IMG/VR virus record: IMGVR_UViG_2693429518_000007
Reading direction: 5' to 3' (one strand)
DNA length: 4,419 nucleotides
From: a virus
Taxonomy: Duplodnaviria; Heunggongvirae; Uroviricota; Caudoviricetes
This document shows, in pieces, positions 1 through 4,419 of this stretch. The notes below the pieces were generated by a model. The model saw only the letters and a list, made by a program, of their open reading frames with translations, had not been told where the DNA came from and did not search any database. Both the position numbers and the translations under genes were made by a program. Each line of letters starts with the position of its first letter. Positions within the stretch are counted from its first letter, which is position 1.

Positions 1-140
1 TCCGCGAAATGGCGCGGCGGTAAGTATGGCTGGGGTTTCCTCCATTGCTCCAGAAAATGCACCGGGTTGTCAGGTTGACCATACGCTTAAGTGACAACCC
101 CGCTACAACGCCCTCTGTTATCAATTTTCTGGTGACATTT

Positions 141-183
141 GGCGGTATCAGTTTTACTCCGTGACTGCTCTGCCGCCCTTTTT
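141..183 (+). terminator. Possible intrinsic terminator: GC-rich imperfect stem (GGCGG ... GCCGCC) followed by a TTTTT run
   Basis: GGCGG at 141-145 and GCCGCC at 172-178, immediately followed by TTTTT at 179-183. The stem is long-looped and imperfect, so this is weak. It sits about 50 nt after a frame-2 stop at 92-94. Confidence 0.2.
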
Positions 184-276
184 AAAGTGAATTTTGTGAT
201 GCGGTGAATGCGGCTAAGCGCACGCGGAACAGTTAAAACCAAAAACAGTGTTATGGGTGGATTCTCTGTATCCGGC

Positions 277-297
277 GTTAATTGTTAACTGGTTAAC
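277..297. repeat. Three tandem GTTAAY hexamers (GTTAAT-T-GTTAAC-TG-GTTAAC), each nearly or fully palindromic
   Basis: Read directly: GTTAAT at 277-282, GTTAAC at 284-289, GTTAAC at 292-297, about 55 bp upstream of the ATG at 353. An adjacent CCTGG-aggca-CCAGG inverted repeat lies at 303-317. Confidence 0.3.
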
Positions 298-352
298 GTC
301 ACCTGGAGGCACCAGGCACTGCATCACAAAATTCATTGTTGAGGACGCGATA

Positions 353-541
353 ATGGAAACGTTATTACCAAACGTTAATACGTCTGAAGGTTGTTTTGAT
401 ATTGGTGTTCTGCTCAGTAATAAAGCGTTTACTGAGGATGCCATTAATATGCGGAAATATGAGCCTTATCTGCTCAATGATAATTCCATACTTTCCCGAA
501 TTGCTCTTCTTGAACTTGGTATTTTCGGAGAACAGCAGTGA
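353..541 (+). CDS. Hypothetical small acidic protein, 62 aa (METLLPNVNTSEG...)
   Basis: ATG at 353 is preceded by GAGGA at 341-345 (7-nt spacer), so I prefer it over the track's 248 start. The stop overlaps the next start (GTGA). The region is visibly AT-rich. I recognise no family. Confidence 0.5.
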   Translation: METLLPNVNTSEGCFDIGVLLSNKAFTEDAINMRKYEPYLLNDNSILSRIALLELGIFGEQQ

Positions 542-726
542 CCTCAGCATTTGCACTGGTGATGACCGTTTTTCTTATAACGGGTGAGCCGCAGAATGTA
601 ATTACCGGAATTTATGACAGTAAGTCATCCTGCATTCAGGTAAGGGACGAACAAAAAATCCCCGGTGAATGCCTCCCGTTAAAAAAAGTGTCGCTGAACC
701 TGAATAACGAAATACCGGCTGGATAA
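538..726 (+). CDS. Hypothetical small protein, 62 aa, with hydrophobic N-terminal segment (SAFALVMTVFLITG) and two Cys
   Basis: GTG start at 538 is preceded by GGAG at 527-530 (7-nt spacer) and overlaps the upstream stop by 4 nt (GTGA), consistent with translational coupling. Same strand and context as the large gene downstream. Confidence 0.5.
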   Translation: MTSAFALVMTVFLITGEPQNVITGIYDSKSSCIQVRDEQKIPGECLPLKKVSLNLNNEIPAG

Positions 727-818
727 CCCTCCAGCCATATTAACGCCATACCAACGGATTAAAAATACCAGCAATGGCAGGAATTTGTTCATCCTTAAAA
801 TGGTTATGAGGTTTATCA

Positions 819-3236
819 ATGAACGCTGATAAAGAAGAAATTGCACTATATTACGAAGCCAAAAATGACAAAGTCAGAAAACGCCTTGGGATTAAAGGTG
901 GTTTTTACTGGCGCACAGCAAAAAAATTATCGGTTGCAATATCACGCGGTGTTGCTGCAATGGACGATGCCGGATTTGACGAAGAGGATTTTAAAAAACC
1001 CATCCGCGTCCATTTACCCGTTGTGAATGACCTTCCACCGGAAGGTGTGTTTGATACTGAATTCTGCAACCGATACGAAAAAGGCGGAGAAGATGGTATC
1101 ACAATGATACTTATCGCGCCCTCTGTTCCGGACAAACCAGCCAGTACTGACAATACCAACGTCAACGGCGAAGACATGGCTAAGATTGAGGAGAATATGC
1201 TTCTTCCGGTTTCAGGTCAGATTCTGCCTGTTCGCTGGCTGGCGCAACACAACAGCGAAAAACCGGTCACGCACGTTTCACTGGACAAACTGCGCGCATT
1301 ACATAACGCACAGGATGAAAAACTTCCCGCCGTTACCGCGCTGGCCATCTCAAATAAAGCAGTGCAACTCGAACCGCTGGAGATTCGGGATTTGTACAAA
1401 CTGGTGCGAGACACTGACAAAGTTTTCCCCGCCCCCGTAAATTCGGACCTGGGACTGATGACCTCTTTTATCGAAGCATACCTGGGCGCTGACTACACCG
1501 ATCGCGGTCTGCTTACAAAAGAGTGGATGAAAGGAAATAGTGTTTCACGCATCAGCCGCACGCCATCCGGCGCTAACGCTGGCGGCGGCATTCTTACCGA
1601 TCGCGGCGAAGGTTTTGTCCACGATGATGCGTCAGTGGCGCGTGACGTAGCCACTGGCGTACTGGCCCGTTCAATGGACGTGGATATTTATAACCTTCAT
1701 CCCGCACACGCTAAACGCATTGAGGAAATTATCGCTGAAAATAAACCGCCATTTACTGTGTTTTTCAGCAAATTCATCACCATGCCGGGCCACAAGGATT
1801 ACTCCCGCGCCATCGTGGTTGCGTCCGTGAAAGAAGCACCAATTGGTATAGAGGCTACTCCCCACCGTGTCACCGAATACCTGAATAAGGTGCTGACTGA
1901 AACCGATCATGCCACCCCTGATCCGGAAATCGTGGATATTGCCTGTGGCCGCTCCTCTGCCCCGATGCCGCAGCGTGTAACAAAAGAAGGAAAACAGGAT
2001 GATGAAGAAAAACCGCAGCCATCTGGCGCAATGGCAGATGAACAGGCAACGACTGAAGCAGTGGAACCGGATACAACTGAACATAATCAGGACACGCAGT
2101 CGATGGATGCTCAGCCACAGATAAATTCTGTTGATGCGAAATATCAGAAACTGCGTGCAGAACTCCATGAAGCCAAGAAAAACATTCCACCCAAAAATCC
2201 TGTCGATGCAGATAAATTACTGGCTGCTTCTCGCGGAGAATTTGTTGAAGGGATTAGCGACCCGAATGATCCAAAATGGGTGAAGGGGATCCAGAGTCGC
2301 GATGATGATGACCAGAATCAGGATAAAGCGGAACAAAACAGCCCAAATGCGTTACAAAACGAGCCAAAAACAAAACAACCAGAACCAGTAGTGCAACAAG
2401 AACCAGAAAAAGTTTGCACCACATGTGGTCAGACCGGTGGCGGCAACTGTCCTGACTGTAGTGCGGTGATGGGGAACGCAACCTACCAGGAAACATTCGA
2501 TGAAGAGAATCAGGCTGAAGCTCAGAAAAATGATCCGGAGGAAATGGAAGGCACTGAACATCTGCACAAGGAGAACACTGGCAGCGATCAGTATCACGCC
2601 AGCGATAATAAAACTGGCGAAACAGCAAATCCCTTAATTAAAGTGAACGGTCATCATGAAATCTCATCCACCAGCAGGTTGTGGCACCATCTGATGATTG
2701 ACCTTGAAGCAATGGGAAAAAATCCTGATGCGCCAATAAACGCTATAGCCGGTAAGTTTTTTGATCCGGCAACCGGAGATATGGGGCCAGAATTCAGCAA
2801 AACTATCGATCTGGAAACCGCAGGCGGGGTCATCGATCGGGACACCATTAAGTGGTGGCTGAAACAGTCACGCGAAGCACAATCCTCCATTCTGACCGAT
2901 GAAATCCCGTTGGATGATGCACTGCTGCAATTACGGGAATTTATCGACGAAAACTCCGGTGAATTTTTTGTTCAGGTCTGGGGTAACGGTGCAACTTTCG
3001 ACAACGTGATTTTACGCCGTTCATATGAACGGCAGGGGATCCCCTGCCCGTGGCGTTACACCAATGATCGCGATGTAAGAACGATGGTTGCTCTGGGACT
3101 GGTGATGGATTTCGACGCAAGAACGACTATTCCATTCGAAGGTGAACGCCATAACGCCCTGCACGATGCGCGTTACCAGGCAAAATACGTTTCAGCCATC
3201 TGGCAAAAACTGATCCCGAGTCAGGCTGATTTTTAA
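819..3236 (+). CDS. Prophage exonuclease, 805 aa: RecE (exodeoxyribonuclease VIII)-like N-terminal and central region, acidic low-complexity linker, CxxC-x7-CxxC zinc ribbon, and a C-terminal DEDDh-type 3'-5' exonuclease domain (Rv2179c-like)
   Basis: Uninterrupted 2418-nt ORF. ATG at 819 is preceded by GAGG at 808-811 (7-nt spacer). C-terminal motifs read directly: D628-L-E630 (MIDLEAMG), D728 in [11 protein letters not shown]778-x4-D783 ([10 protein letters not shown]). Zinc ribbon C533/C536/C544/C547 at nt 2415..2459. N-terminal resemblance to Rac RecE is from memory only. Confidence 0.9.
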
Positions 3237-3250
3237 TGTTCAACCCGGAT

Positions 3251-3278
3251 CGCCGCTAACGGCATATAGTTAGCGGCG
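3251..3278 (+). other. Perfect 10-bp inverted repeat (CGCCGCTAAC / GTTAGCGGCG) with an 8-nt loop, forming a stable hairpin in the exonuclease-xis intergenic region
   Basis: Read directly; arms are exact reverse complements. In RNA the stem can extend about 3 further pairs with G-U wobbles (3248-3250 with 3279-3281). No U-tract follows, so it is not a canonical intrinsic terminator. Confidence 0.45.
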
Positions 3279-3294
3279 GTTGTGAGATATAGCT

Positions 3295-3498
3295 ATGAGC
3301 AGCATATTTTTAACCGAAAATGAATTGCAAACGTTAACGGGCTGCAAATATGCAAGCCACCAGCGCAACTGGTTAATAAAAAATGGGCTTCCGTTCTATA
3401 CCAATCGTAGTGGAAAACCGATCGTCAGTCGGGAACTGTTTACCTGTATAAAAACTTTACCACCACGTGAGGCTGAACCTGATTTCGGTGCGATCTAA
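3295..3498 (+). CDS. xis: Excisionase-like protein (DUF4224-type small DNA-binding protein), 67 aa
   Basis: Small ORF immediately upstream of the integrase, with its stop overlapping the integrase start (TAATG), as in lambda xis-int. The sequence (LTENELQTLTGCKYASHQRNWLIKNGLPFY) matches my recollection of prophage excisionase-like proteins; not verified by search. Confidence 0.7.
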   Translation: MSSIFLTENELQTLTGCKYASHQRNWLIKNGLPFYTNRSGKPIVSRELFTCIKTLPPREAEPDFGAI

Positions 3499-4317
3499 TG
3501 GGAAGACGAAGGAAAAATCCCGAACACGAAAAATTACCGCCAAAGGTATACCCCAATAAATATAGTTATGTATGGAAACCGACATCCAGAGAATCTGTAA
3601 CCTTAACTGCAATCGAGGATGGTTTAGCCGCATTATGGAAAAAGTATGAAGAAACGGTTAACCATCGCGATCGCGCAATGACATTTGGGCGTTTGTGGGA
3701 AAAATTTCTCGCCAGCGCCTATTACAGCGAGCTTAGTCCTAGAACTCAAAAAGATTATCTGCAACATCAAAAAAAGTTGCTGGCCGTATTCGGTAAGGTG
3801 CTGGCCGATTCTGTAAAACCAGAGCACATCAGACGATACATGGACAAAAGAGGCGAGCAGAGTAAAACGCAGGCAAACCATGAAAAAAGCAGTATGTCGC
3901 GCGTTTATAGTTGGGGGTATGAACGAGGGTATGTAAAGGCTAATCCTTGTGCCGGTGTAAGTAAATTCAAGGCAAAAAACCGAGAGCGCTATGTGACTGA
4001 CAAAGAATACCAGGCCGTATTAAGCGTGGCTCCTGTGCCTGTTTTTATCGCGATGGAAATTGCATATCTGTGCGCAGCAAGGATTTCCGATGTGTTATCT
4101 CTGAAATGGGAACAGATCGGAAACGATGGGATCTTTATCCAGCAAGGTAAAACAGGAAAGAAACAGATAAAAGCCTGGAGCCCCCGCCTGCAATCAGTTA
4201 TAGAAAAAGCCAAACAACTCCCCAAGTCGGCCTATGTAATCAGCAATCAGTACGGCAACCGTTACATGTATAAAGGATTTAATGAAATGTGGGTTGAGGC
4301 AAGAAATTTAGCAGGAC
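3498..4317 (+). pseudogene. int: Lambda-family tyrosine integrase, 3'-truncated by IS insertion: about 273 native codons, then 9 IS-derived codons (LNRPGNPGD) and a stop at 4346
   Basis: N-terminus MGRRRKNPEHEKLPPKVY resembles lambda Int. Box I arginine in AARISDV (R195) and a QQGKTGKK motif (K218) are present. The downstream HxxR, His and catalytic Tyr region is missing because the reading frame runs into IS sequence at about 4318. Confidence 0.85.
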
Positions 4318-4419
4318 TGAACCGCCCCGGGAATCCTGGAGACTAAACTCCCTGAGAAAGAGGTAAACAGGATGACTAAAAATACACGTTTTTCCCCCGA
4401 GGTCCGTCAACGGGCAGTT
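4318..4419 (+). mobile_element. Left end of an IS629/IS3411/IS1203-like IS3-family insertion sequence (terminal inverted repeat plus start of orfA), continuing beyond the window
   Basis: The sequence from TGAACCGCCCCGGGAATCCTGGAGAC onward matches my recollection of the IS629 left terminus, with the typical IS3-family 5'-TG end. OrfA start MTKNTRFSPEVRQRAV follows at 4372. Exact boundary is placed from memory. Confidence 0.85.
4372..4419 (+). CDS. IS3-family transposase OrfA (helix-turn-helix subunit), N-terminal 16 codons only; partial at window edge
   Basis: ATG at 4372 is preceded by AGAGG (7-nt spacer). The translation MTKNTRFSPEVRQRAV is the N-terminus I recall for IS629/IS3411 OrfA. Confidence 0.8.
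   Translation, partial: MTKNTRFSPEVRQRAV

Follow-up and report, generated by a model that had tools for sequence, protein, structure and literature searches.

A RecE-type N-terminal region joined to a predicted DexA-like DEDDh exonuclease domain in the early-left operon of Qin/DicB-type lambdoid prophages

What kind of nuclease is a RecE-like protein whose C-terminal end is not that of RecE? The question is raised by a gene on a stretch of 4,419 nucleotides (nt) of viral DNA (Caudoviricetes; IMG/VR record IMGVR_UViG_2693429518_000007), which was analysed over its whole length and is referred to here as the window; the gene encodes a protein of 805 amino acids (aa). From the sequence alone it had been proposed that the first ~600 residues of this protein resemble RecE of the Escherichia coli K-12 prophage Rac, and that the nuclease module of RecE, which is of the PD-(D/E)XK (PDDEXK) type, had been swapped for a DEDDh 3′-5′ exonuclease domain. 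The gene is a three-part mosaic, consisting of an N-module, a shared acidic linker with four cysteines (Cys4), and a nuclease; a complete D-E-D-D-h catalytic set is present in a confidently predicted RNase-T/DnaQ-like fold, which is joined to the N-terminal module of RecE (RecE-N) and the linker. The product is probably a modular nuclease of the early-left operon of a Qin/DicB-type lambdoid prophage that would act 3′-to-5′ on DNA ends. The parts of the gene are the following:

819..3236, + strand: coding sequence of the chimeric exonuclease, 805 aa, with ATG start and including the stop codon (RefSeq WP_000990641.1, ‘exonuclease’)
819..2018, + strand: RecE-N module, aa 1-400, non-catalytic (Pfam, NCBIfam, BLASTP)
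984-1379, + strand: PF06630 (Exonuc_VIII) in RecE-N, aa 56-187 (Pfam)
2019..2639, + strand: acidic linker, aa 401-607 (21% Asp plus Glu over aa 381-607)
2205-2638, + strand: part of the linker common to K-12 recE and to DEDDh genes with an N-module of the YdfE type (YdfE-N), aa 463-607 (DNA joints at both ends)
2415..2459, + strand: zinc-ribbon-like Cys4 motif C533-x2-C536-x7-C544-x2-C547 in the linker (sequence)
2640..2690, + strand: junction segment, aa 608-624, like neither K-12 RecE nor free-standing exonucleases
2685..3203, + strand: predicted DEDDh 3′-5′ exonuclease domain, aa 623-795 (PF16473, the family of T4 DexA and Rv2179c)
2700..2708, + strand: Exo I motif D628-x-E630, invariant in homologues and aligning with DexA D7/E9
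3000..3002, + strand: Exo II motif D728 (in GNGATFD), invariant in homologues and aligning with DexA D119
3150..3167, + strand: Exo III motif H778-x4-D783, invariant in homologues

The open reading frame (ORF) has a Shine-Dalgarno sequence (GAGG) 7 nt 5′ of its ATG. PF06630 was recognized by the Pfam scan at aa 56-187 (E = 1.8e-24; 87.1 bits at a cut-off of 25), and BLASTP aligned aa 58-607 to residues 50-591 of K-12 RecE with 73% identity; past aa 607 it found no significant similarity to K-12 RecE. The DNA has the same boundary, as similarity to K-12 recE (82.3%) covers window positions 1151-2638 and ends at codon 607. The likeness proposed for the N-terminal ~600 residues is thus borne out for aa 58-607 but not, as far as K-12 RecE is concerned, for aa 1-57; yet these first 57 residues match the NCBIfam exoVIII equivalog profile NF007259 and a RecE-like protein of phage POCJ13. 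Only aa 1-607 align to that profile, at positions 1-602 of its 877, and the score of the whole protein (1036.2 bits) is below the equivalog cut-off of 1269.

The remainder belongs elsewhere. PF16473 (Rv2179c-like) matches over its entire length (profile positions 1-177 of 177; E = 1.1e-60, 204.8 bits at a cut-off of 27), and the Pfam scan gave no match of the 805-aa protein to any PD-(D/E)XK family, PF12684 included, just as the sequence-only reading had anticipated. The five residues singled out there, D628, E630, D728, H778, and D783, sit exactly at the positions given and are invariant in two alignments, one of 7 divergent phage homologues and one of 25 sequences. M626 was considered as an internal start that would yield a free-standing nuclease, and was rejected for want of a convincing Shine-Dalgarno sequence.

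Does the predicted fold agree with the motifs? For aa 608-805, AlphaFold2 gave, from 25 sequences, a model with a mean predicted local distance difference test score (pLDDT) of 86.9 and a predicted template modelling score of 0.84; the first 9 residues have a pLDDT below 50. Foldseek against the PDB ranked T4 DexA (8KEL/8KEN) first among the 50 matches listed (E = 9e-10; template modelling score (TM) ~0.70), followed by RNase T, DnaQ domains, Cap18, and Orn (oligoribonuclease); for DexA, RNase T, the DnaQ domains, and Orn the Foldseek probability is 1.00, with TM of 0.65-0.71. No PD-(D/E)XK fold is found among these 50 matches, and the predicted C-terminal fold is the DEDDh one that the motifs had suggested. 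The RNase T structures matched by the model are complexes with DNA. When the DEDDh alignment was compared by hhalign with E. coli DnaQ, Exo I only (D12/E14) was paired, with low probability; the profile is too shallow.

DexA is also the sole match in the PDB by sequence, with an E value of 2e-4 for the single sequence and 3e-17 for the profile, and is deposited there as ‘Exodeoxyribonuclease’. Its residues 4-174 score 79 bits on PF16473; the family thus bears the name of an exoribonuclease and yet includes a classical DNA exonuclease. The name-giver, Rv2179c of Mycobacterium tuberculosis, belongs to the same Pfam family and has been described as an RNase-T-like exoribonuclease (PMC8628891); it was absent from the results of the PDB sequence searches, profile included, at E values up to 1, and from the top 50 Foldseek matches. 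The Exo I and Exo II residues of the window protein align with D7, E9, and D119 of DexA, D700 aligns with D90, a residue of DexA tetramerization that is kept at the level of the alignment, and D764 aligns with D169 in an alignment stretch of low confidence. DexA differs in being a free-standing protein of 227 aa with extra loops, ~24% identical, and without the RecE-N module or the linker. The alignment further pairs its W152 with T748; the equivalent residue is T (96) or Y (78) in 174 of 184 retrieved proteins longer than 450 aa, which are the fused forms, and W in 39 of the 46 shorter than 260 aa, which are the free-standing ones. Both DexA and its E. coli homologue EcD have DNA-degrading activity in vitro, and two roles are described for DexA, namely scavenging of host DNA and end processing in intron homing (PMC12153337).

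How are the modules combined in other prophages? RecE-N is found with a PD-(D/E)XK domain and recT, with a DEDDh domain and without recT, and alone. The first form occurs in Rac, in Gifsy-2, and in a Klebsiella phage, where recT directly follows recE in all three and where PDDEXK-like PF12684 is found at the C-terminus of RecE (aa 615-850 in the K-12 protein). K-12 Rac recE, too, belongs to a lambdoid early-left operon and precedes xis and int; it differs from the window gene in that its product ends in the PDDEXK-like nuclease, with recT next to it, whereas the window protein ends in DEDDh and is without recT. The DEDDh domain, in turn, has another N-terminal partner. The mEp460-type protein (823 aa; L003:4126-6594) shares only aa ~460-805 with the window protein, its N-terminal ~460 residues being unrelated and without a match to PF06630. 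YdfE-N-type genes such as this one, which many E. coli prophages also carry, are 81-93% identical in DNA from window position 2205 onwards, with 87-97% aa identity in the DEDDh domain, and the mEp460 gene has the same place in its operon (dicB, DUF1482, exonuclease, xis, int). As YdfE-N-type similarity begins at 2205 and similarity to recE ends at 2638, aa 463-607 are common to all three gene types. A RecE-N-only protein is encoded by the Shiga toxin (Stx) phages POCJ13 and 75/02; it has 682 aa and no nuclease domain, shares 59% identity with aa 1-595, the first 57 residues and the Cys4 motif among them, and, in POCJ13, has a hydrophobic C-terminal tail. The Cys4 motif, which may bind a metal, is present in K-12 RecE and in the mEp460-type protein as well. 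The proposed exchange of nuclease modules therefore stands insofar as a RecE-like N-terminal part is joined to a DEDDh domain, but it is no singular event and represents one of the combinations of a modular system. The conserved linker is probably the homologous stretch in which N-modules and nuclease modules recombine between prophages, as at other lambdoid module boundaries.

Two loci of this group have peculiarities of their own. In POCJ13 (L010:4501-8310) the gene for the RecE-N protein is followed by a 99-aa ORF, recT, and a gene for a free-standing YqaJ-type nuclease, and the RecE architecture thus appears to be split into separate genes. In K-12, the pseudogene ydfE (L013:4079-4999) corresponds to the first 256 aa of the mEp460-type exonuclease (96% identity), where it is truncated by IS2E; it is the remnant of a YdfE-N-type fusion, which explains an otherwise unannotated K-12 gene fragment. 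The expectation that YdfE is an N-terminal remnant of the window protein itself was rejected, as BLASTP found no similarity between the two.

How widespread is the combination, and is it maintained? The identical protein is encoded on 175 contigs, and a 93%-identical variant on at least 1000 contigs, all with PF06630 and PF16473; the names on record are ‘exonuclease’, ‘3′-5′ exoribonuclease’, and ‘exodeoxyribonuclease VIII’. The linker-DEDDh junction was found in 3058 of 5426 complete E. coli genomes, as counted with a 600-nt probe at a coverage of at least 80%, which takes in both N-module types. A scan of viral contigs that covered only close, fused relatives gave 80 loci with a close DEDDh domain, 27 of them with RecE-N, 52 with YdfE-N, and 1 with another N-module; the ORF has a normal length in ~76 of the 80. 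The RecE-N family comprises 179 clusters at 50% identity within 1.84 billion proteins. Among 62 long RecE-N representatives the Pfam scan recognized 19 with PDDEXK, 10 with PF16473, and 3 with a fused RecT domain, and a BLAST census of all RecE-N representatives of at least 450 aa gave 17, 13 (DEDDh), and 2, respectively. Some of the DEDDh fusions reach an identity of only 25-40% for the N-module, against 50-58% for the nuclease domain; the combination is therefore either old or of repeated origin. In comparisons with three diverged copies, at a synonymous divergence (dS) of ~0.66-0.70, the ratio of nonsynonymous to synonymous divergence (dN/dS) in the DEDDh domain is 0.10-0.11; it is 0.36 for RecE-N aa 58-400 (against the copy at locus L014) and 0.30-0.53 for the linker. 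These values show a gene maintained by purifying selection, not a chimera in decay.

Most commonly, the DEDDh domain is encountered as a free-standing protein of 182-190 aa; altogether, 689 phage records contain a homologue. Those of Flotzy, PY54 (gp51), Tbat2_3, and E. coli (P0137) are 50-58% identical over aa 625-805 and keep all catalytic residues, differ in the absence of the N-module, and have, in most cases, a Trp at the position of DexA W152. They likewise belong to early operons; the Flotzy gene is located directly 5′ of a small ORF and int. The E. coli P0137 homologue (55% identical) lies in prophages with the order cIII, kil, Rad52-like single-strand annealing protein (SSAP), single-stranded DNA-binding protein (SSB), unannotated ORF, exonuclease, Abc2 anti-RecBCD protein (loci L098-L101, 3322-5859; the unannotated ORF is called in one of the four). 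In Tbat2_3 the order is erf, ssb, exonuclease, and in phage RcPutin it is Cas4 exonuclease, hypothetical gene, exonuclease, DNA polymerase. The SSAP-SSB-exonuclease-Abc2 set is a recombination module with a 3′-5′ exonuclease component. Abc2 at the E. coli loci is of the P22 type, and the ORF ahead of the exonuclease, in L098, has 159 aa and no Pfam match. The free-standing genes of Salmonella prophages (L102-L105, 3743-5570) have a different context, being preceded by a DndB-like (PF14072) gene and followed by a DUF1233 gene, in the position of the excisionase, and int.

Where does the window gene itself reside? Window positions 1-4320 are 100% identical to chromosomes of E. coli O55:H7, in which the locus is a lambdoid prophage adjoining tRNA-Ser and mtfA. 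Besides the exonuclease gene the window contains:

127-178, + strand: full-length gene of the DicF antisense small RNA (sRNA) (Rfam RF00039, 77 bits at a gathering score of 48)
353-541, + strand: dicB, 62 aa (RefSeq, Pfam)
538-726, + strand: DUF1482/ydfD-like gene
3295-3498, + strand: DUF4224 gene, in the slot of the annotated excisionase of related prophages
3498-4346, + strand: tyrosine integrase ORF, interrupted at ~4318 by the end of an IS3-family element
4316-4419: last ~100 nt of the window, the end of an IS3-family insertion sequence (IS) element, multi-copy, with as many as 50 places in one E. coli genome

The order DicF, dicB, DUF1482, exonuclease, DUF4224 gene, integrase is that of the left arm of K-12 Qin. 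Other integration sites (potC, ompW, and yccA) and phage mEp460 show the succession dicB, DUF1482, exonuclease, excisionase or DUF4224 gene, int again. In K-12 Qin, the early-left operon is repressed in the lysogen. A scan for promoters and terminators gave no signal above chance, and no promoter-like signal above chance was seen ahead of the gene. For the prophage section of the examined region, the annotation lists neither recT nor another annealase, and the 80 related viral loci are devoid of recT and of a RecE-type PDDEXK domain; since recT is adjacent neither here nor there, this is not a canonical RecE/RecT pair.

Some details of the locus may be added. As in K-12 Qin, the DicF gene is located upstream of dicB. 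The ORF list contains, at 248-541, a 97-aa ORF with a GTG start, of which aa 36-97, the 62 aa given by RefSeq (353-541), match DicB in Pfam. The integrase has 282 aa in the window and 341 aa in O55:H7 strain CB9615, the O55:H7 genomes matching window positions 1-4320 only; because an IS3-family element interrupts the integrase, the prophage of the source strain is probably excision-defective. Upstream in the O55:H7 prophage (L001:6299-7785), a SIR2-family gene and hokD lie between the replication and the late-regulation genes and are candidate defence or toxin cargo.

What, then, would such an enzyme do? From its family membership 3′-to-5′ polarity would follow, opposite to what is known of RecE, with the DEDDh domain taking off nucleotides by two-metal-ion catalysis. 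The physiological substrate is probably DNA 3′ ends; after induction of the prophage, the enzyme would trim or degrade the 3′ tails of recombination or replication intermediates or of linear DNA, and plausible roles would be the trimming of non-homologous 3′ tails of annealed intermediates, or the degradation of linear DNA, the latter comparable to the two roles of DexA. RecE-N and the linker might deliver the nuclease to, or regulate it at, the same DNA-end substrates as in RecE, independent of polarity. As a 3′-to-5′ enzyme cannot make the 3′ overhangs needed by RecT or Red-beta, the protein would not be a recombineering exonuclease. DNA is more likely than RNA to be the substrate because DexA, the nearest solved and characterized relative and itself a member of PF16473, is a DNA exonuclease, because free-standing homologues sit in recombination and replication modules, and because the N-module and the linker belong to the double-stranded DNA exonuclease RecE, which in full length has been reported to improve linear-linear recombination (PMC11611040).

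Several points weigh against the picture of a nuclease targeted to DNA 3′ ends. We infer the polarity, the metal dependence, and the substrate of the protein alike; the founding member of PF16473, Rv2179c, is described as an exoribonuclease (PMC8628891; Pfam family description), and the DEDDh model closely matches the structures of RNase T and Orn. The model of RecE-N is poor (pLDDT 56) except for aa ~10-100, its fold search was without a meaningful match, and to call it a ‘targeting module’ is a guess. The high conservation of the linker could mean recent recombination instead of function. Moreover, the 12 kb of annotated prophage upstream of the gene contain no SSAP, so that a role in recombination would call for a partner in trans, or for no partner whatever.

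The same data may be read in other ways. A canonical 5′-3′ double-stranded DNA exonuclease of the RecE type, whose PD-(D/E)XK domain has diverged past recognition, would agree with the name ‘exodeoxyribonuclease VIII’ given by some submitters; in view of the missing PDDEXK match, present in RecE of K-12, Gifsy-2, and Klebsiella, the equivalog score below the cut-off, the DEDDh fold, and the missing recT, this idea is refuted and can hardly be entertained. Only slightly less improbable is a decaying chimera, or pseudogene, generated by illegitimate recombination in a cryptic prophage and without selected function. It is true that the prophage of the window is damaged, with its integrase cut by an IS3-family element, and that the K-12 relative ydfE is an IS2-truncated pseudogene, but the nuclease domain has a dN/dS of ~0.1 at a dS of ~0.7, its five catalytic residues are invariant, and the ORFs are intact in ~76 of the 80 viral loci; a YdfE-N-type DEDDh fusion is found at the same operon position in mEp460, a complete deposited genome, and the same architecture recurs in deeply divergent clusters. 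Selection and distribution effectively refute this scenario. Trimming or degradation of host or phage transcripts, of sRNAs such as DicF, or of tRNA 3′ ends by a 3′-5′ exoribonuclease that works like Rv2179c or RNase T is to be taken more seriously and is nevertheless rather unlikely. The family name, the rank of RNase T and oligoribonuclease just under DexA in the fold search, weak matches of close homologues to PF00929 (RNase_T), and the DicF gene ~640 nt upstream on the same strand all speak for it; however, the closest solved and characterized relative, DexA, acts on DNA, Rv2179c was not recovered in the PDB sequence searches (profile, E up to 1), the matching RNase T structures contain DNA, the free-standing homologues are encoded among genes for SSAP, SSB, anti-RecBCD protein, and DNA polymerase, and the N-module and linker are common to a double-stranded DNA exonuclease.

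A nuclease of the same kind might also serve the prophage against other phages, in superinfection exclusion, by destroying foreign nucleic acid such as the hypermodified DNA of T-even phages or the genomes of RNA phages; on the present evidence such a defence function is possible, if on the unlikely side. The dicB early-left operon, in which the gene resides, is one repressed in the lysogen in K-12 Qin, and the gene is preceded by no promoter-like signal above chance; the only match to PADLOC-DB extends over 23 residues of an ‘Exonuclease’ effector model and is not significant (E 0.028, 12.2 bits). EcD (‘HREX’), an E. coli exonuclease of the DexA family with conserved catalytic residues, attacks T4 DNA in vitro, breaking it down, and its plasmid-borne expression makes E. 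coli resistant to T4; W152 of DexA is the residue needed for recognition, by stacking, of 5-hydroxymethylcytosine (PMC12153337). EcD was compared here through the residue numbering of that paper: its A78 corresponds to DexA D90, which implies a DexA-like domain that starts near residue 1 and hence, probably, a short protein of the free-standing kind. At both positions the window protein differs, with T748 replacing the Trp tied to 5-hydroxymethylcytosine and with D700 kept where EcD has alanine; the paper makes no mention of prophages or of RecE fusions (PMC12153337). Prophage DEDDh exonucleases with variable auxiliary domains, ISG20-like and called ‘TONDO’, have been found to act against MS2 and Q-beta (preprint PMC13344964), but as this set was found with ISG20 as the query and a limit of <500 aa, the TONDO proteins are a different DEDDh branch. 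The presence of the gene in more than half of the complete E. coli genomes, the SIR2-family gene and hokD in the same prophage, and the Cap18 exonuclease among the structural matches would all suit a role in defence.

Returning to a modular nuclease for DNA 3′ ends, what does it imply for RecE? According to a 2023 review, the ~560-600 N-terminal residues of RecE are of unknown function, save for their boost of linear-linear recombination (PMC11611040). RecE-N is paired with either type of nuclease or with none, and its function should therefore be separable from polarity and from RecT. It is conceivable, though we would not count on it, that RecE-N with the Cys4 linker is a portable module for targeting DNA ends, or for docking to a host factor, which serves nucleases of either polarity or acts alone. 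If so, the DEDDh version would be a stand-alone enzyme of 3′-end resection or degradation in more than half of E. coli genomes; its task might be to take off non-homologous 3′ tails and thereby bring SSAP-type recombination to completion, or it might counteract recombination or phages, and the natural swaps would make the function of the N-terminal two-thirds of RecE directly testable. In any case, the natural combinations are a natural experiment on this region and suggest simple swap experiments.

Is any of this already on record? No paper on a RecE-N/DEDDh (Rv2179c-like) fusion came up in literature searches. Pfam-annotated databases, on the other hand, already contain the domain pair, which is named by the NCBI pipeline, and both modules, as well as the mosaic evolution of lambdoid phages, are well known, so this is not a new kind of system; what emerges is an exonuclease of the DexA family in a prophage early operon of most E. 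coli genomes. Of its names, ‘exoribonuclease’, used by NCBI for many copies, derives from that of the Pfam family, and both this and ‘exodeoxyribonuclease VIII’ are probably misleading for the gene, which is of relevance for genome annotation, for the choice of parts in recombineering, and for current work on exonuclease-based phage defence.

Finally, both modules were met in further fusions. In P0361 (703 aa) and P0460, a RecT domain is attached straight to RecE-N; P0361 has RecE-N at aa 50-391 and, at aa 520-703, a RecT part with 97% identity to RecT of K-12, which looks like an in-frame joining of recE and recT by deletion of the nuclease domain. In the Salmonella proteins P0130, P0131, and P0133 (400-527 aa), the DEDDh domain is fused to DUF551 (PF04448) and DUF550 (PF04447); it is thus a promiscuous fusion partner in lambdoid prophages.

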